38,756 nucleotides of DNA from a virus (Duplodnaviria > Heunggongvirae > Uroviricota > Caudoviricetes): IMG/VR virus record IMGVR_UViG_646311923_000010; one strand, 5' to 3'. Numbering within the stretch: the first letter of the stretch is position 1; each line of letters begins with the position of its first letter. The notes under the pieces are model-generated. The model saw nothing but the letters and a program-made list of their open reading frames with translations, was not told the DNA's origin and did no database searches. Shown one piece after another: positions 1 through 38,756 of the stretch. The position numbers and the translations under genes are program-made.

Positions 1-981
1 CTAACGTCTTGCTTTTAACAATAACCAGATAAACACCGGCGCACCCAACGTTGCGGTGACCACGCCAATAGGCAGCTCTGCGGCAGCTAATGCCAGGCGC
101 GCTACAATATCGGCCAGCAGCAATGCGCTCGCCCCTGCCAGCGCGCAGCCGGGAAGTAATACGCGATGATCGGTTAAACCACACAACCGAAGAATATGTG
201 GGATCACCAGACCAATAAAGCCGATAGCACCCGCCAGCGCCACACTGACGCCAACCATCCAGCCGGTCGCGGCCACCAGCACATTGCGCCAGAACCACAG
301 GGGTAAACCCAGTTGCCGCGCCGAGATCTCGCCAAGTGCTAACATATTCATCGGCCTGGACTGACAACAGATCCACAACAACACGGGGATCAATGCCAGC
401 ATCAGCCAGCTTTGCCGCCAGTCTACGCCGCCAAAACCGCCCATCATCCAGTACATCAGCTGACGTAAATCAACAGAGGTGGAAAAGTAGATAGCCCACG
501 TCATTAGTGCGCTACAGATAATCCCTAATGCAACGCCAGCCAGCAATAACCGACTGGTCGAAAGATGACGACGGGCGAAACGTAAGAGTATTAAAGTGAT
601 GATAAGCGCGCCAGCAATCGCACACAGCCCTAGCGCCCAGTTGGGGAGTTGCCCTTGCCCAAGCAATACCGCGGCGATAAGCCCCACGCCTGCGCCGTTA
701 GAGACGCCAAGTAGTCCAGGTTCTGCCAGAGGATTTTCAAACAACGCCTGCATTACAGCGCCGGATATAGCCAGCGCCGCACCAACCAGCAATACAGCCA
801 GCGTACGTGGCAGGCGAATTTGCCAGACGAACAGTTCGCCACGAGGAGTAAACCAGTCACCTGGCGAGATCCATTGTTCACCGGCGCAAAGGCTTAAGAG
901 AAGCGCCAGCAGCATCAAAACTGACAGGCATAATAACCAGCGAATATTTTGTCGCTGTTGTTGGCGGGCAAGTGTCAGCAT
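1..981 (-). CDS. btuC: Vitamin B12 ABC transporter permease BtuC (chromosomal flank)
   Basis: 326-aa highly hydrophobic multi-pass ORF; N-terminus [17 protein letters not shown]... and overall sequence match enterobacterial BtuC as recalled; typical host codon usage. Confidence 0.9.
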
Positions 982-1040
982 GGTATCCGTTCTGCTGAAG
1001 TGTCATGGCGTTGATTTTACGGTGACTCTTCGACAGTGAA

Positions 1041-1064
1041 AAGAAAAAAGGCCGCAGAGCGGCC
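1041..1064 (-). terminator. Rho-independent terminator (minus strand) downstream of the int-operon cargo genes
   Basis: GGCCGC-AGA-GCGGCC hairpin at 1050-1064 followed on the minus strand by a U-run (plus-strand A-run 1041-1049). Confidence 0.55.
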
Positions 1065-1173
1065 ATAAACACAAACAAAAATCAATAAGTTAGATAATTA
1101 TCAAAGACTTACAGACACACAAAAACACAGCCAACCACAACAAACAACAGAGATGTGGTCAATTTGTGGATCA

Positions 1174-1719
1174 TCAGCCAACAAATTTAGCAACAAATAC
1201 AGCAACCGCCGCCGTGAAAATGGTTGTGCATACTGGCACAATAATGCCACTCCAACGCCACTTCGTATTATCATCAACCTTGTCAAACCGCCGATTCATC
1301 TCATCCATAATCTTGTCAAAGCGTTTATCCATCGCTTCGGTAAGCTCACCCTTCAGGCTGTTAATGTCTGATTTGAGCTGCTCTTTCAGGTGAGCTGTAT
1401 CAGATTTAAGCTCACCTTTCAGATTCGCAATATCGCATTTAAGATCACCTTTCAGATGAGCAATGTCTGCTTTGAGCTCACCTTTCACCTCACCAACATC
1501 AGCTTTGGTTGAGAGGTTTGTAGTGCGTTCAGTAAGCGTCGCAAGGTCGTTTCTTGTTAGCGATAAATCACCTTCGAGTCGCTCAATTCGCCTTTCAAGT
1601 TTATCTGACATTCCGCCTCCACTACTGCCGCCATCGCCGCCATGATAAAGCACATCACGCTCAGAATGCGACATACTACCTGCTGAATTACCGAAAAGGT
1701 TTCTTGCTGCATTACCCAT
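1174..1719 (-). CDS. Coiled-coil protein with C-terminal transmembrane anchor and 11-aa tandem repeats (function unknown)
   Basis: ORF 1174..1728; likely ATG at 1719 preceded by AGGA 8 nt upstream; Gly-rich linker, repeated LKGELKxDxAHLK units, C-terminal hydrophobic helix IIVPVCTTIFTAAVAVFVAKFV; 2-nt gap from upstream gene. Confidence 0.6.
   Translation of the reverse strand: MGNAARNLFGNSAGSMSHSERDVLYHGGDGGSSGGGMSDKLERRIERLEGDLSLTRNDLATLTERTTNLSTKADVGEVKGELKADIAHLKGDLKCDIANLKGELKSDTAHLKEQLKSDINSLKGELTEAMDKRFDKIMDEMNRRFDKVDDNTKWRWSGIIVPVCTTIFTAAVAVFVAKFVG
1341..1505. repeat. Five tandem 33-bp repeats inside the coiled-coil gene
   Basis: Motif ctcacctttcag recurs at 1345, 1378, 1411, 1444 and 1477 (exact 33-bp period); encodes in-frame 11-aa repeats. 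Confidence 0.8.
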
Positions 1720-2212
1720 TTTCACCATCCTGCGCTTTGTCTTTCTCCAACCACTTCAGCACCGCAGACGTACGGTAAAGGCTCAGGTAACCACAATTCA
1801 GGCAATGCAGCGTGTAATAAGTTTTGCGCATATCAGGTATGCTCTTAACATCACCAAAAAAAGTATAAGATACATAATGCTTTATGTTCTCTTTAATTAA
1901 CTCACTCTGCTCCTCCAGGGGTAGATTGTTAAAATTTTCTGGTTTCTTATTTTTATCCCAACAAAGATCCATACTTTCAGGAACAGATAATCGCGACGAT
2001 CCACATGAAGGGCAGACACTGGAGACCCCCTTCTCAGACAAGAAACGGAAGAAGATTTCTGGCGTAATCTCCATCAGCCGCTCTTTATGTTTTTTGACAC
2101 GACTCATCGACTTCTTATTGATTTCATCAGCTTCTTCTTTGCATTTATCTTCTATATATTTCGATAGTAAATAGTCATATAACTCTTTTTTTGTAGGTTT
2201 TTTTATTTCCAT
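1712..2212 (-). CDS. AT-rich hypothetical protein with two CxxC pairs (putative zinc ribbon), prophage cargo
   Basis: 166-aa ORF; start codon 2 bp after the int stop (translational coupling); K/E-rich, low GC relative to neighbours; CPSC and CLNC motifs. Confidence 0.6.
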   Translation of the reverse strand: MEIKKPTKKELYDYLLSKYIEDKCKEEADEINKKSMSRVKKHKERLMEITPEIFFRFLSEKGVSSVCPSCGSSRLSVPESMDLCWDKNKKPENFNNLPLEEQSELIKENIKHYVSYTFFGDVKSIPDMRKTYYTLHCLNCGYLSLYRTSAVLKWLEKDKAQDGENG

Positions 2213-2214
2213 AG

Positions 2215-3192
2215 TTACATTCCTCCCAAGGGATTAAACCTCACCGCATCCTGCAAGTAATCCGGCGCAAGATGGGCATAAATCATCGTTGTCTGAATCT
2301 TTGCGTGCCCCAGAATTTTCTGGAGCGTCAGAATATTGCCGCCGTTCATCATGAAATGACTGGCGAAGGTGTGGCGCAGCGCATGAACAGCCTGGCCGTC
2401 AGGAACATCAGGTGCGACCGTTTTGATGACATCGCGAACCAATGAATAATCCAGCGTCGGAAACACCAGTTTCCCGCCCCGTTTTTTGATCTTTTCAAAC
2501 AGGCTTTCAGTAATAGGAACGGTACGGTTTTTGCTGTTCTTCGTTTTTGAAAAAGTGATTCGACAATGAAGAACACGGCGCTGCTCCAGTGCCGCTACCT
2601 CGCCCCATCGCGCCCCGGTCGACAGAAGGATTTCGACAGCCAGTCGTTCATCGGGATTTTCAGCCAGTGCATCCAGCAACTGAACACATTCAGACTTACT
2701 CAGATATCCCATTTCGCGCTCGTTAACCTTCATTCCTTTAAGGCCTTGAACGGGGTTATCGTTAAGAAAATGGCCGGATGAGATGAGTGCGGTAAACATC
2801 GCGCTTAACGCCCCAATCTCTCGATTTATGGTGCTGGGCTGTATCCCCTGCTCTATCCTGGACACACGTAGCTCGGTGAGCATCGTTGTATTAAGTTTAT
2901 GCACGCACGGGTCATCCATTGCTTCACTCAAGCGCAGCAATTTAAGGCGCGTGTTATGCCCTGACTTCATTAGCTGGCCGTGGTATTTCCACCACAAGTC
3001 AATAAGCACTGACAGAGGACGGCGATCAATGGAGTTTCCTTTCCACTCATTGTTATGCTGTTGCGCCAGCACCCACCGCTCATATAAAACTGCATCCGAT
3101 TTCGTTTTAAATTTTTTGCGAATGCGTTTGCCTTTACGCCCCTCCGGGCGCATGTCAAGAAGATACCCTCCCGGAATTGATTTTATGCTCAT
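2215..3192 (-). CDS. int: Tyrosine integrase, P2 Int family
   Basis: ORF 2215..3342; start set at ATG 3192 (MSIKSIPGG...) by alignment with recalled P2 Int N-terminus; C-terminal HALRHTFASHF...LGH...TTMIYAH catalytic region. Confidence 0.9.
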   Translation of the reverse strand: MSIKSIPGGYLLDMRPEGRKGKRIRKKFKTKSDAVLYERWVLAQQHNNEWKGNSIDRRPLSVLIDLWWKYHGQLMKSGHNTRLKLLRLSEAMDDPCVHKLNTTMLTELRVSRIEQGIQPSTINREIGALSAMFTALISSGHFLNDNPVQGLKGMKVNEREMGYLSKSECVQLLDALAENPDERLAVEILLSTGARWGEVAALEQRRVLHCRITFSKTKNSKNRTVPITESLFEKIKKRGGKLVFPTLDYSLVRDVIKTVAPDVPDGQAVHALRHTFASHFMMNGGNILTLQKILGHAKIQTTMIYAHLAPDYLQDAVRFNPLGGM

Positions 3193-3241
3193 TCGTGAAA
3201 CCCCAGCGTTACAAGACCACCATGCCCCCAGCGCTCCATGA

Positions 3242-3553
3242 TTAGCCGGGCTGTGTGCCAGTCTTGCGGGGTTTTTGAGAAGGCGATGTGCTTTTTGGCC
3301 CATCAGGGGAGAGAGACGGACTGATCTGCCCAGCAGCCTCATTTGTTTTTCCCGTCATAAGCCATATAGTGTATTTTTCGAAATCCTTAGAATTAATTAC
3401 GCGATCAACAACGCTTAAACCAACCTCTCTTTTACCGCTCTCATAATTCTTTATAGTTCCGAGATTTATCCCAGTAACATCTGCAAACTCAGCTTGAGTT
3501 AACCCTTCACTTTTCCGTATCTCTTTCAGTTTTTTTTCGTACCCACTTGACAT
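3242..3553 (-). CDS. C: Immunity repressor, P2 C-like HTH protein
   Basis: 103-aa ORF directly upstream of int on the same strand; helix-turn-helix segment LTQAEFADVTGINLGTIKNYESG; GGAG 6 nt upstream of ATG. Confidence 0.8.
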   Translation of the reverse strand: MSSGYEKKLKEIRKSEGLTQAEFADVTGINLGTIKNYESGKREVGLSVVDRVINSKDFEKYTIWLMTGKTNEAAGQISPSLSPDGPKSTSPSQKPRKTGTQPG

Positions 3554-3644
3554 GGTGGTCTCCAGACGACTAAATTAACCCTAAAAGTCGCCTAGAGACG
3601 ACTTTTAGCAACAAATAACCACAGACTGAACAGGTTATCACATC
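3554..3644. promoter_or_regulatory. Divergent early promoter/operator region between C and cox-like gene
   Basis: Perfect 10-bp inverted repeat CTAAAAGTCG (3581-3590) / CGACTTTTAG (3599-3608) with 8-bp spacer, plus a related GACGACTAAA copy upstream; sits between divergent genes. Confidence 0.5.
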
Positions 3645-3923
3645 ATGACAAAGCTCTTGAACACATACGAGCAAGCGGATTTTGAGCGTTTGGCGGCGTT
3701 CTACCCATACCGCGATGAGCATGGATTACCGGTACTCGAAGAAAGCCTGAAAGATTACGCGAAGCGTACCAATCAAACTGTTAATGCAGTGAAAAGGCAG
3801 GCTGACAGAGCAGCCCTTCCCATCAACCAAGAAGAAAAAAACTCAAAACGTACAGTAAATCTCTTCGCAATTTTCCTGAAAACCATCAGAAACGCAGAGA
3901 AATACGTGCAGATGACAAAATAA
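3645..3923 (+). CDS. Cox/Apl-like excision and transcription regulator (assigned by position)
   Basis: 92-aa ORF transcribed divergently from C at the position of P2 cox; little sequence similarity to P2 Cox recalled. Confidence 0.5.
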   Translation: MTKLLNTYEQADFERLAAFYPYRDEHGLPVLEESLKDYAKRTNQTVNAVKRQADRAALPINQEEKNSKRTVNLFAIFLKTIRNAEKYVQMTK

Positions 3924-3937
3924 CGAGGTGTCATTTT

Positions 3938-4276
3938 ATGCTGAAGCAACGCCGTAATTTTCGCACCGAAACGGAACGCCAAGCTAACCGTTTCGCTACC
4001 AGCGCATCACGCAGCAACATCCGCTACAGCCTGAGCGAAACACACGCAACACCGGATGGCCACGCTGTAAAACAAATCGGCGAGCATACCTGGCTGATTG
4101 AGAAAGCTGGAATCGTGGTCCACAAATGCCCACGCAATCCGTTTACCGGAAACCGCATTTTTGCATTGAGCTGCGGCGACAATCACTTCGGACAGGATTT
4201 CACATTATACGAAGCACTTCGCACGGTTGATCGTCTGCTTCGCGGGCAAAGTTTTATTAAACGGGCTGATTTATAA
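3938..4276 (+). CDS. Hypothetical early-region protein
   Basis: 112-aa ORF with GAGG upstream of ATG; same strand and tight spacing with early operon. Confidence 0.5.
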   Translation: MLKQRRNFRTETERQANRFATSASRSNIRYSLSETHATPDGHAVKQIGEHTWLIEKAGIVVHKCPRNPFTGNRIFALSCGDNHFGQDFTLYEALRTVDRLLRGQSFIKRADL

Positions 4277-4286
4277 CAGGTGCTTT

Positions 4287-4574
4287 ATGACCAAAGAGCA
4301 TGCACAAGGTGTATTTATCCGTTTTATTGATTTTCGCGGTGAACTGTTATTACGCGCATCCGCTATTGATGGAGTGGCTCCGGCGGGTAAAAACGGAGCC
4401 GACGAAGCCACTTACGTTTATCTGAACGGCACGCGACTGCTTGTGGAACTTCCGTACCAGACCGTACGAGAAATCATTAGTGAAGCTGAAAAGGCACGCC
4501 TGGCTAATGGCGATGAACCCTATATCGAAATTATTTGTATGGATTCAGAAACTGAAATTCAGAAAGCAGATTAA
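4287..4574 (+). CDS. Hypothetical early-region protein
   Basis: ORF 4227..4574; start placed at internal ATG 4287 (MTKEHAQ...) to avoid overlap with upstream gene. Confidence 0.45.
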   Translation: MTKEHAQGVFIRFIDFRGELLLRASAIDGVAPAGKNGADEATYVYLNGTRLLVELPYQTVREIISEAEKARLANGDEPYIEIICMDSETEIQKAD

Positions 4575-4585
4575 AGGGCGTTGCG

Positions 4586-4828
4586 ATGGGCAAAGAATAT
4601 AAAACTCTCATTAACAAAGCACTTGAGCGTTTTTATTTTCGCTTAAGTGCATCAGGCGCTCATGCTGAACGTGCAGCCCGTGACTCATTGACCAGGGCAA
4701 TCCGGAGTCTGTATGACGTGGCTTTTTACGCTGATGATCTGGATGCACTTAACGAACTTTCCGAGCTGATCTGTGCCGCAGAATGCGGGGAACATATTGA
4801 ACCGTATAAGCTGGGGAATATTGCATGA
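4586..4828 (+). CDS. Hypothetical early-region protein
   Basis: 80-aa ORF in the compact early operon. Confidence 0.45.
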   Translation: MGKEYKTLINKALERFYFRLSASGAHAERAARDSLTRAIRSLYDVAFYADDLDALNELSELICAAECGEHIEPYKLGNIA

Positions 4829-4938
4829 GTATATTTATCTCATGGCTTGTTCTGATTATTTCGGTGGCCTGCGCCATTGGGATTATGCGAATTATTCATT
4901 CAGTAAAAAAGATTGAACGCTTTTTCACTGGTGAATAA
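4825..4938 (+). CDS. Small hydrophobic peptide (37 aa), putative membrane protein
   Basis: ATG at 4825 overlaps the upstream stop (ATGA); translation MSIFISWLVLIISVACAIGIMRIIHSVKKIERFFTGE; not in the ORF track because it is shorter than 60 aa. Confidence 0.35.
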   Translation: MSIFISWLVLIISVACAIGIMRIIHSVKKIERFFTGE

Positions 4939-36323: not shown

Positions 36324-37907
36324 ATGGCAAGTAAAGCTAACCTTGTTAATTTGGATGCGATGATTTCAAGAGAGGATTTCTCTGCTCAATCCGATAATGA
36401 TTTATCTTTCGAATCTATACAAAATATAGCTATGAGAGATATCGAAATGTTGTCTGGCCTACTCAGAAAACCAGATTTTCAGAGAGAAACAAATCACTGG
36501 ACTCCAGAGCAAGTAGTTTCATTACTAAAGAGTTTTGTCACAGGTGATTTAATACCATCCGTGATTTTATGGAAGAGTTCTTTTCTGTTTGTTATAGACG
36601 GTGGTCATAGACTTAGTGTTTTAAGAGCATGGAAAGAAAATGACTATGGTGATGGCACTATATCGCAAAAATTCTTTGGAAATAGTATTTCCGGAGAGCA
36701 AAGAAAGATCGCACAAAAAACAAGAGAATTGGTTGACTCCACAGTTGGTAAATGGTCTGAGATAGAAAGAAAAATGCAGGATTCTAATAATGACCATGAT
36801 GAGAGTAGAAGGCTTACAAATATTTACGTAAGGGCTTTGCAAGTCCAGTGGGTTAAAGGTGATTCCGATAAGGCAGAAACGTCTTTTTTCAATATAAATA
36901 AAAAAGGTACTCCTTTAGATGAGGTTGAGGAAACTTTACTTAGGCATAGGAAGAAACCTATATCTATCGCTGCGAGAGCAATAATACGTGCAGGAAAAGG
37001 ACATAGATACTGGTCCTCTTTCCCTGAGGATAAGACTAAAAAGATAGAAGAGCTTTCCTCAAATATAAACTCCTCTCTTTTCGATCCAGACGTTAAATCT
37101 CAAATTAAAACACTTGATCTACCTCTGGGTGGCTCACGCGGTGTGAGGTTAGCTCTTGATATCTTAATAGATCTTATGTCTATTTCCGTGTCCCAAAACG
37201 AAAATTATCAAAAAGAATTGCTTAATCAAATCGAAGATTCAGATGGAAGCGAAACTGTTGTTGTTCTGGAAAAAACCGCAAAATTACTAAATTGGATTAC
37301 TGGAAATGACAAGGGCAGCTTAGGATTACATCCGGCCGTGTATTTTTATAGTGCATCAGGCAGACATGTGAATCCTATGTTTTTAGGGACGACTCTGTTT
37401 ATAGCGAAAAAATTAAAATTTAATGATAAGAACTTCTTCAAAAAATTCACAAGTATTAGGTTTAATTTAGAGAAAACTCTAATAAACAATAAGTCTATGC
37501 TAGCATCGTTAGTGAACAGAGCAGGACATAAGAAAAGAACTGAGTATTACTCTAATTTATTTGAGTCAATGATTGATTTCCTTCTTGAGGTAAAAAAGAA
37601 AGACAAAAGCATGAGTGATTTCAGCCTTACAGAAAGTGAAATACTCCAGCTTGCTCACTTTGAAGGTAATATCCTATCTGGGACAAGTATCAGCAATGCA
37701 ACTAAAATTAGTGAGGAAGCGAAGAATGCTGTATTCATTGATACTGCATTAGCTTCAGCAATTACATGTCCTATCTGCCAGGGATATTTAGATCCTTCAA
37801 AATCTGTCTCATATGATCACATCAAAAGAGTTGCAGATGGTGGTAAAGGTTTGGCAAAAAATACTCAGTTAACTCACCCGTATTGCAATATGTCTGTCAA
37901 AAATTAG
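36324..37907 (+). CDS. DUF262 (ParB-like, DGxHR motif) + C-terminal HNH nuclease protein; GmrSD/BrxU-like candidate defence nuclease
   Basis: 527-aa AT-rich ORF; N-terminal PDFQRETNHWTPEQV...FVIDGGHRLSVL matches the DUF262 signature; C-terminal CPICQGY...YDHIKRVADGGKG...NTQLTHPYCN is HNH/His-Me-finger-like; flanked by AT-rich non-coding DNA. Confidence 0.7.
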   Translation: MASKANLVNLDAMISREDFSAQSDNDLSFESIQNIAMRDIEMLSGLLRKPDFQRETNHWTPEQVVSLLKSFVTGDLIPSVILWKSSFLFVIDGGHRLSVLRAWKENDYGDGTISQKFFGNSISGEQRKIAQKTRELVDSTVGKWSEIERKMQDSNNDHDESRRLTNIYVRALQVQWVKGDSDKAETSFFNINKKGTPLDEVEETLLRHRKKPISIAARAIIRAGKGHRYWSSFPEDKTKKIEELSSNINSSLFDPDVKSQIKTLDLPLGGSRGVRLALDILIDLMSISVSQNENYQKELLNQIEDSDGSETVVVLEKTAKLLNWITGNDKGSLGLHPAVYFYSASGRHVNPMFLGTTLFIAKKLKFNDKNFFKKFTSIRFNLEKTLINNKSMLASLVNRAGHKKRTEYYSNLFESMIDFLLEVKKKDKSMSDFSLTESEILQLAHFEGNILSGTSISNATKISEEAKNAVFIDTALASAITCPICQGYLDPSKSVSYDHIKRVADGGKGLAKNTQLTHPYCNMSVKN

Positions 37908-38615: not shown

Positions 38616-38756
38616 ATGTCGCAAAAATCGCTTACGGCCATCACGTTCTGCGTGACGGCAATCCTCATCATCTGGATGTTGCACGGTTCGCTGTGCGAAA
38701 TACGGATGAGCTTCTGGGGAGCGGAGTTTGCGGCGTTCTTACAGTGTAAGCAGTAA
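38616..38756 (+). CDS. hok: Hok/Gef-family type I toxin peptide
   Basis: 46-aa ORF MSQKSLTAITFCVTAILIIWMLHGSLCEIRMSFWGAEFAAFLQCKQ; N-terminal TM helix and conserved SLCEIR motif; an overlapping upstream frame (38486..38749) is mok-like. Confidence 0.7.
   Translation: MSQKSLTAITFCVTAILIIWMLHGSLCEIRMSFWGAEFAAFLQCKQ

Follow-up and report, generated by a model that had tools for sequence, protein, structure and literature searches.

We analysed a 38,756-nucleotide stretch of viral DNA (IMG/VR record IMGVR_UViG_646311923_000010; the whole stretch is called the window below) and, within it, two small minus-strand genes that lie between the integrase gene (int) and the left attachment (att) site of a P2-like prophage. 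The upstream gene, orf166, codes for a putative zinc-ribbon protein and the downstream gene for a putative membrane-anchored coiled-coil protein, which we refer to as the chassis. We consider it very likely that the two genes form a real, conserved and coupled module. In sequence comparisons the chassis stays constant, and its partner varies among unrelated families, comprising the zinc ribbon, phrog_5893 and one or more others. The partner gene travels together with the chassis codons for an N-terminal peptide (N-peptide), the two being inherited and exchanged as a single unit whose breakpoint is in a Gly-rich linker. Gene order in related elements shows that the module is, as a rule, cargo of the lysogeny operon, in the place that rexAB has in lambda. 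The best explanation that we can propose, with slightly less than even confidence, is that temperate phages carry in their lysogeny operon a conserved accessory cassette of two genes, which would serve Rex-like exclusion or abortive infection.

Gene layout and translational coupling

The operon in the window runs in the order C, int, the pair and the att-core terminator, all on the minus strand. Its first gene codes for a C-type helix-turn-helix repressor (3242–3553; HTH_3 and phrog_147), from which the lysogenic operon reads into int and the cargo. The P2-type tyrosine integrase (2215–3192, minus strand) is a RefSeq coding sequence with Int_N and Phage_integrase domains. The 3' end of int reads ATG TAA at 2215–2220, the stop codon occupying 2215–2217, and the int-orf166 junction (2213–2226, minus strand) comprises a GGAGG at 2222–2226, within the last int codons, and a 2-nt spacer at 2213–2214. 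The start codon of orf166 (1712–2212, minus strand; 166 amino acids; phrog_4293) lies at 2210–2212, with the GGAGG 9 nt upstream. The original prediction, made from the sequence of the window, was therefore right in placing a 166-amino acid open reading frame (ORF) 2 bp after the int stop.

The same prediction had a 184-amino acid ORF begin 2 nt past the orf166 stop, and here it has to be revised. The mechanically called ORF indeed reaches 1728, giving 184 codons, but its first ATG (1726–1728) is already upstream of the orf166 stop. The second ATG (1717–1719) overlaps that stop and has an AGGA upstream at a suitable distance; it defines a long form of 181 amino acids (1174–1719, minus strand). 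The 2-nt gap between the cargo genes was thus discarded in favour of an 8-nt overlap (1712–1719, minus strand; ATGGGTAA). Gene callers chose the equivalent start (MGNAA/MSNAV), again overlapping by 8 nt, in homologues from E. coli, Salmonella and Providencia, and the 181-residue start is used in all close homologues. The RefSeq product of the chassis gene has only 145 amino acids, from an internal ATG at 1609–1611.

An overlap, or a gap of at most 3 nt, was found at all ten tabulated junctions of zinc-ribbon and chassis genes, and likewise at the junction in the window. The arrangement is tight both to int and between the two genes and, given the overlap, argues for translational coupling more strongly than was stated earlier; from their spacing, both cargo genes appear to be translationally coupled to int and to each other. 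From C to the att core, no strong terminator-like site was located on the minus strand. The two weak candidates, at 2451–2469 inside int and at 1199–1215 inside the chassis gene, have three G-C pairs each and poor T tails.

Among five alleles of the locus, the ratio of nonsynonymous to synonymous polymorphism (pN/pS) was 0.05–0.24 for orf166 and 0.03–0.1 for int. For the chassis gene it was 0–0.3 in codons 1–36, where there are few substitutions, and 0.1–0.6 in the remaining codons. These low values indicate that both are genuine, constrained genes.

Distribution and genomic position

Among 5426 complete E. coli genomes, orf166 was found in 22 and the coiled-coil gene in 38, always in single copy beside the integrase of a prophage in the btuC-ihfA interval. 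The empty K-12 site lacks both genes, and a host origin was discarded on this ground; the pair is prophage cargo, as had been proposed. All 22 genomes with orf166 also possess the coiled-coil gene, and 16 more have it behind a different upstream sequence. In the three of these that were inspected (L002–L004), the upstream sequence is a 137-amino acid ORF, not annotated in RefSeq, which represents another zinc-ribbon allele between int and the coiled-coil gene (L002 2718–3131; L003 2706–3119; the same slot in L004). A Klebsiella P2-like element has a 129-amino acid ORF in the partner slot. Both the 137- and the 129-residue products share the four-Cys pattern of orf166 and can be aligned with it.

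Directly downstream of every zinc-ribbon gene examined we found a gene for a protein of the chassis plan, overlapping it or within 3 nt of it. The downstream proteins have in common a variable N-peptide, a Gly-rich linker, a Met, a helix of the LExRVxKLExD type, a coiled coil and a C-terminal transmembrane helix; in L020 the coiled coil is formed by nine-residue ATKADLQ beta-layer repeats. This pairing was seen in E. coli, Salmonella, Providencia and Klebsiella, in lambdoid and 186-like prophages, and in metagenomes. Among cultured phages it is carried by Salmonella phage SPN3UB (gp24/gp25) and Klebsiella phage ST101-KPC2phi6.1.

The pair follows int in the window, L007, L008 and L011, is situated directly after CI in the lambdoid prophages L016 and L023, and lies between C and int in the 186/P2-like prophages L020 and L024. 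In Providencia it is found beside ogr, and in SPN3UB in an Arc/Ant immunity-type region. Such a range of positions marks the pair as mobile. For the broader set of chassis loci, the gene immediately upstream was scored in 51 distinct viral-contig neighbours, of which 30 contained HTH_3, 20 Peptidase_S24 and 8 Phage_CI_repr. Genome loci gave a similar picture of upstream repressors, with a lambda N peptide downstream in three. The cI-int slot of L020 holds a larger cargo array: two more genes (3804–4896), with products of 135 and 203 amino acids (the latter with a Flk_N domain), are present between the repressor and the zinc-ribbon gene.

According to one survey, the int-att interval of P2-like phages is a minor defence hotspot with 3% of the systems (PMC13586616). 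The cI-int and tail-to-CI intervals are likewise described as hotspots for defence or accessory genes in published work (PMC13586616, PMC9122126, bioRxiv 10.1101/2024.10.15.618418). The pair in the window has the properties of int-att hotspot cargo: the att core lies at 1040–1064, the genes (1174–2212) are inside the element, and alternative alleles occupy the same slot.

The soluble partner orf166

From its sequence, the orf166 product is predicted to be a small four-Cys zinc-ribbon protein belonging to an acidic family. As first described, the gene is AT-rich (38.3% GC versus 51.9% for the window) and codes for two CxxC pairs, C67/C70 (2003–2014) and C137/C140 (1793–1804). These knuckles, which span 1793–2014 on the minus strand, correspond to invariant alignment columns and are conserved in every homologue. 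The family is rare, with 18 clusters in a search of 5.8 billion proteins. Among 1.84 billion representatives, 91 members were recovered by a profile search, 38 of them with E<=1e-10, and a third search round with a diverse alignment of the family added few further distant members. Across 29 diverse aligned members the invariant residues are the four Cys, one Gly and one Trp. The conserved core measures about 110–130 residues, and proteins of the 166-residue type possess an extra long N-terminal helix. The AlphaFold2 (AF2) model (predicted local distance difference test score, pLDDT, 84) combines this long helix with an alpha/beta core, in which the second CxxC is located between strands 131–137 and 143–147, and C67/C70 in an unstructured stretch before strand 79–83.

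The original prediction of a nucleic-acid-binding zinc ribbon did not stand. The net charge is negative in 27 of the 29 family members, with a median of -5, and an acidic family speaks against a general nucleic-acid-binding role. Neither a basic surface nor a similarity of the TFIIS, Rpb9 or NrdR type was found, and such a role was discarded for the family as a whole. Comparison of orf166 with Pfam, NCBIfam and known folds revealed nothing significant, the named zinc-ribbon families of Pfam all scoring below threshold, and sequence searches against solved structures returned noise only. The check by remote homology and structure prediction that had been recommended thus gave a confident fold for orf166; it linked neither of the two proteins to a known family or solved fold.

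The coiled-coil chassis protein

The coiled coil, the Gly-rich linker (GGDGGSSGGG) and the C-terminal hydrophobic helix noted at the outset are all present in the second protein. Modelling predicts a tail-anchored inner-membrane protein with a DUF1640-like cytoplasmic coiled coil, a flexible Gly linker and a disordered N-peptide of about 25 residues. Residues 1–36, encoded at 1612–1719 on the minus strand, comprise the N-terminal peptide (1–25) and the linker (26–36); they are partner-specific and predicted to be disordered, with an AF2 pLDDT below 50 for residues 1–35. The model has helices at 38–68, 72–146 and, at the C-terminus, 153–180, the first two being separated by a break at S70-T71-K72 (the 69–71 region). 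With respect to the globular head and trimer of DUF1640 proteins, the AF2 monomer contains one 30-residue helix only before the beta-layer, preceded by the disordered residues.

The beta-layer motif LSTKAD (residues 69–74; 1498–1515, minus strand) is situated between the first helix and the stalk. T71, K72 and D74 are invariant in 22 homologues, and L69-S-T-K-A-D74 fits the motif [aliphatic]-A-T-K-x-[DE] that Hartmann et al. described in membrane proteins of the DUF1640 type (PMC4786415). The stalk contains five perfect 11-residue units (KADxxxLKGEL; residues 72–126; 1342–1506, minus strand), whose number differs among alleles, ranging from 1 to about 6 across E. coli, Salmonella and Klebsiella. 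From these alignments the stalk would be variable in length, and the repeats look unstable. Two 186-like prophages are near-identical in this region (L020 5431–6063 and L021 5431–5983), and in one of them the chassis gene is split into two ORFs within the nine-residue ATKADLQ repeats.

The protein has a single hydrophobic segment, its last 28 residues (best 19-residue window 2.4, at residue 159), which include the C-terminal transmembrane helix (residues 153–180; 1180–1263, minus strand). Only G181 lies beyond the predicted helix, and a single residue in this place points to a tail anchor.

In PHROG searches the chassis protein matched phrog_9415 (E=9.5e-15) and gave weak matches to holin and Rz-like families. 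RefSeq names it DUF1640/CCDC90. Its score against the CCDC90-like/DUF1640 family (PF07798) is sub-threshold, at 26.5 bits versus a gathering cut-off of 33.5 (E=6.7e-6). Among solved structures only weak coiled-coil matches were obtained, to 7o92 (E 0.005) and to 6h9l, which has 11-mer repeats (E 0.008). The protein may work like a DUF1640 stalk, but membership of the family is not established. Matches to Liberibacter SC1/SC2 and APSE were set aside as uninformative; they concern the stalk only and have no partner gene.

Partner families and cassette exchange

At the DNA level, the window and L003 are at least 97% identical through int to about 2230, 30–50% identical from there to about 1620, and again at least 97% identical from 1611 to att. 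The replaced cassette takes in the final codons of int, the zinc-ribbon gene and some 36 codons at the start of the coiled-coil gene, with its distal breakpoint at the Gly linker. At the proximal side, the identity of int to L002/L003 falls at about 2230–2250. The C-terminus of the integrase is allele-specific, ending ...NPLGGM in the window and ...NPLGDALYEAS in the L002/L003 type, in which the zinc-ribbon ORF overlaps the end of int.

Further chassis genes were sought by scanning for the first-helix motif in one genome per species (41 loci) and in IMG/VR (80 loci), a redundant sample that is biased by the search motif. In the 117 loci with a recognisable chassis ORF, the upstream gene belonged to a Cys-free family of about 140 amino acids (phrog_5893) in about 67 cases, to the zinc ribbons in about 18–20 and to a third family in 13, the rest being singletons. 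The PHROG families involved are all of "unknown function". In the Photorhabdus/Xenorhabdus type (L040–L064, e.g. L041 3436–4225), a Cys-free phrog_5893 protein of about 143 amino acids replaces the zinc ribbon, and the module adjoins the baseplate hub and spike (gpV) genes.

L041 and L046 exemplify the exchange. Their chassis segments, from the conserved helix to the C-terminus, are 99% identical, with a single difference by eye, and their partners and N-peptides are unrelated. Over 88 non-identical pairs, the identity of the N-peptide tracks that of the partner (Spearman rho 0.37) and not that of the rest of its own protein (rho -0.04). Where stalks are at least 85% identical and the partners unrelated (17 locus pairs), the N-peptide identity is 0.31, which equals background; when the partners are related, it rises to 0.95. 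In 18 locus pairs that combine related partners with different stalks, the N-peptide identity is 0.66. This pattern indicates that exchanges have occurred repeatedly and in both directions. Since partner and N-peptide are swapped jointly, the latter is probably the docking site of the former, a proposal in which we place moderate confidence. In the simplest reading, the Gly linker would be at once a flexible tether and a recombination joint.

Candidate internal start and short isoform

A GGAGG at 1616–1620 precedes an in-frame ATG at 1609–1611 (together 1609–1620, minus strand), which specifies Met37 of the 181-residue form and is a candidate second start for an isoform of 145 residues. Met37 is invariant among 22 close and mid-distance homologues, and a Met is present here in 45 of 49 chassis genes. 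The Gly codons just before it mostly spell GGAGG (e.g. GAT GGA GGC), and the other Gly codons of the same linkers are GGC or GGT. When synonymous codons were resampled with local codon usage, using one entry per lineage and lineages grouped by eye, a strong Shine-Dalgarno (SD) sequence 3–11 nt upstream of the Met was expected in 7.75 of 31 lineages; it was observed in 20 (P ~1e-7). The internal Met is annotated as the start in E. coli RefSeq/GenBank records and in phage ST101-KPC2phi6.1. There may be two isoforms, the longer being coupled to the partner gene and the shorter lacking the docking peptide. In every E. coli record seen, the coiled-coil gene is annotated from the internal Met.

Comparison with known systems

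Like the pair in the window, lambda RexA/RexB constitute a two-gene cargo with a soluble and a membrane component. They are downstream of, and co-oriented with, the repressor, and relatives of our pair occupy exactly the cI-to-N interval. The pair in the window differs in following int rather than the repressor and in its single C-terminal anchor and long cytoplasmic coiled coil, whereas RexB is a four-helix polytopic protein. Homology to RexA/RexB was sought for the window pair and no sequence match was found. A second comparison is offered by sieB of P22 and lambda. Work by Ranade and Poteete in 1993 reportedly described it as an exclusion gene expressed in the lysogen, in which an in-frame internal start yields a shorter product, Esc, that modulates the long form. 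The chassis gene resembles it in the conserved Met after GGAGG, the internal start being here a candidate deduced from sequence; unlike it, sieB has no coupled partner gene. Lambda and P22 were not among the matches when the window protein was compared by tblastn with 50,697 phage records.

With the DUF1640/CCDC90-like proteins (PF07798; MCUR1, CCDC90B; PDB 6h9l) the chassis shares a C-terminal anchor, a coiled-coil stalk, a beta-layer where the stalk begins, and 11-residue repeats. It differs in apparently lacking a globular head, in possessing a disordered partner-specific peptide with a Gly linker, and in being phage-borne and always paired, as well as in its score below the gathering cut-off. 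XhlA (PF10779) of PBSX-type prophages of Bacillus is also phage-encoded and has a short coiled coil and a C-terminal transmembrane helix. Short relatives of the chassis gave full-length matches to this family, which remained sub-threshold at 17–21 bits versus a cut-off of 34.7 (E 5e-4 to 5e-3); the window protein gave no match to XhlA at E up to 1. In contrast to the chassis, which belongs to a lysogeny operon, XhlA is encoded in a lysis cassette with holin and endolysin.

The hotspot cargo of P2-like phages (old, tin, Z/fun) is comparable, in that variable cargo occurs at the int-att end and the same prophage has a GmrSD-like gene at the D-ogr hotspot. In the parts of PMC13586616, PMC9122126 and bioRxiv 10.1101/2024.10.15.618418 that were available, the pair is not among the systems named. 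For type II toxin-antitoxin systems, it is the architecture alone, small overlapping genes, that fits. No description of the pair was found in the searchable literature.

Possible function

We propose a model in which the module would be expressed in the lysogen from the repressor promoter. The chassis would insert as a tail-anchored, probably trimeric stalk that projects its N-terminus some 15–20 nm into the cytoplasm, and the N-peptide would tether the soluble partner to the tip of this stalk, on the cytoplasmic face of the membrane. The short isoform, which lacks the docking site, could join the oligomer, thereby tuning or gating it. Recognition would be set by the swappable partner, and the membrane chassis would scaffold the response or permeabilise the membrane. 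The module as a whole would then act as a Rex-like exclusion or abortive-infection device directed against other phages. An anti-phage function is a possibility that we put forward tentatively. The role in exclusion, as sensor and effector, that was suggested in the original prediction is still one that we infer; the rexAB-like location after the repressor adds to its plausibility, as does the swapping of partner and N-peptide as a unit on a constant chassis.

Several observations weigh against this explanation. A single C-terminal transmembrane helix with a one-residue periplasmic tail is not known to form a pore. Neither protein scored above the cut-off in any Pfam or NCBIfam family. In PADLOC-DB v2.0.0 the chassis had only low-complexity coiled-coil matches (ZorA, LmuB; E >=2e-5, partial), and orf166 nothing meaningful. 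The Photorhabdus/Xenorhabdus module is located among baseplate genes and not behind a repressor. As to the short isoform, there is no strong SD sequence in 11 of the 31 lineages and no Met in 4 of the 49 chassis genes, and selection for an internal start may not account for all of the GGAGG enrichment, part of which could stem from common ancestry of the junction or from its serving as a recombination patch.

One alternative is an addiction module similar to toxin-antitoxin systems, in which the membrane protein would be a toxin restrained by the upstream soluble protein bound to its N-peptide, so that a cell losing the prophage or the antitoxin would be killed or arrested; this alternative overlaps with abortive infection. 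Two small genes coupled by an upstream overlap, a partner-specific N-peptide, the presence of other addiction cargo (a Hok/Gef gene) at the far end of the same prophage, and the sub-threshold similarity of short chassis relatives to XhlA, a membrane protein associated with lysis, are all consistent with it. We nevertheless regard it as unlikely, since no known toxin or antitoxin family was matched in Pfam, PADLOC or NCBIfam, and the long variable stalk, the beta-layer and the variation in repeat number are not features of small membrane toxins. The likeness of the tail-anchored coiled coil to the plan of XhlA, with PF10779 sub-threshold in relatives, also bears on a role in the phage's own life cycle, either as an XhlA-like lysis accessory or by membrane sequestration of a small regulator that times induction or lysis. 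The weak PHROG matches to holin and Rz-like families and the co-transcription with repressor and integrase, as read from gene order and the terminator scan, would agree with such a role. Yet most P2-like prophages at this site do without the pair (38 of 5426 E. coli genomes carry it), its patchy, mobile occurrence resembles that of accessory cargo, a location in a lysis cassette was never seen in the loci examined, and the window protein itself has no XhlA match. This reading thus seems quite unlikely.

Expression in the lysogen, which is probable, would equally suit a lysogenic conversion directed at the host, the product being, for example, a tail-anchored protein of the ElaB/YqjD/YgaM kind that is associated with stress or ribosomes, or one that modulates a membrane transporter. 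ElaB, YqjD and YgaM are C-tail-anchored proteins of E. coli, and the topology of the chassis, a tail anchor with a cytoplasmic coiled coil, recalls them. In favour of the same reading we also counted that eukaryotic DUF1640 members are reported to scaffold membrane complexes (PMC7519068). No relation to DUF883 was found in Pfam, and the rapid swapping of partner and docking peptide fits an arms race better than housekeeping, which makes this alternative very unlikely. Finally, RefSeq labels both genes "hypothetical" and omits the 137-residue allele entirely, as might be expected of chance ORFs or decaying remnants at a prophage end. That reading is hardly credible and was rejected, being already refuted by the conservation data: the genes show purifying selection and invariant Cys ligands, synteny and coupling are conserved across genera and phage types, and the fold prediction is confident.

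Prophage cargo in a known hotspot is of a familiar kind; the architecture and the cassette logic are unfamiliar. If exclusion or abortive infection is indeed its function, the module would represent a new compact architecture in prophage-encoded immunity. Its carriers are P2-like, 186-like and lambdoid phages, whose hosts are many Proteobacteria, among them pathogenic E. coli O145/O157/O26, Salmonella and Klebsiella. A constant membrane chassis with an exchangeable partner that brings its own docking peptide provides a directly testable model of how a defence might be retargeted by recombination. It would also give the DUF1640-like proteins of prokaryotes their first functional context; MCUR1 and CCDC90B, their mitochondrial relatives, are themselves not yet well understood. 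Because annotation misses one partner allele and truncates the chassis gene, the module is undercounted in automated surveys. A more ambitious claim is that of a widespread, previously undescribed class of prophage systems, in which a universal chassis would be reprogrammed in specificity by the partner and docking-peptide cassette, recombining at the Gly linker, regulated by an internal-start isoform, and used from the Rex position as an anti-phage device with a new mechanism of sensing and tethering; as a whole, we hold this to be somewhat unlikely.

Prophage, insertion site and other cargo

The window is 100% identical to E. coli O145 strain RM9872. Bases 1–981 represent the 5' part of btuC (minus strand), and the rest is a P2-like prophage with C repressor, integrase, cox-like and early genes, replication gene A, capsid and tail genes, D and ogr. 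In K-12, which has the empty site, nothing interrupts the interval between btuC and ihfA; the match to K-12 is exact through base 1064, the end of a hairpin, beyond which the sequence of the window departs. The attL core (1040–1064) is the host ihfA terminator, with a hairpin at 1050–1064 (GGCCGCAGAGCGGCC) and a minus-strand T-run at 1040–1049. The hairpin is G+C-rich, and no other site within 900–3800 resembles a terminator as closely. A second att copy of 25 nt (AAAGAAAAAAGGCCGCAGAGCGGCC) was located just before ihfA (L006 4745–4770), about 300 bp past the right edge of the window. The identity to K-12 up to 1064, together with the repeat at attR, indicates that the phage integrates into the ihfA terminator: the prophage is inserted there, and its att core is that terminator.

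The pair had originally been described as ending at a terminator at 1041–1064. The hairpin and T-run are real, but they are not specific to the cargo or the phage, being the att core and host ihfA terminator; a phage-specific terminator was ruled out because the same bases are found in the empty K-12 site and are repeated at attR. The att-core hairpin can still terminate the phage operon and is the likely terminator of C, int and the cargo. The phage brings its own copy of the ihfA terminator, and after integration the copy at attR still ends ihfA transcription. The copy at attL separates the C-int-cargo operon from the btuC promoter region.

At the other end of the prophage, a 527-amino acid GmrSD-like protein (36324–37907, plus strand) is encoded between D and ogr. 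RefSeq calls it "GmrSD restriction endonuclease domain-containing", and it possesses an HNH-like Cys/His motif at its C-terminus; it gave no match in NCBIfam. This is likely to be defence cargo at the classical D-ogr end of P2. A Hok/Gef-family toxin gene (38617–38756, plus strand, the region continuing to attR in L006 4341–4780) belongs to the prophage, being located between ogr and attR. Two terminator-like hairpins come after it, and the last base of the window is the end of its stop codon.

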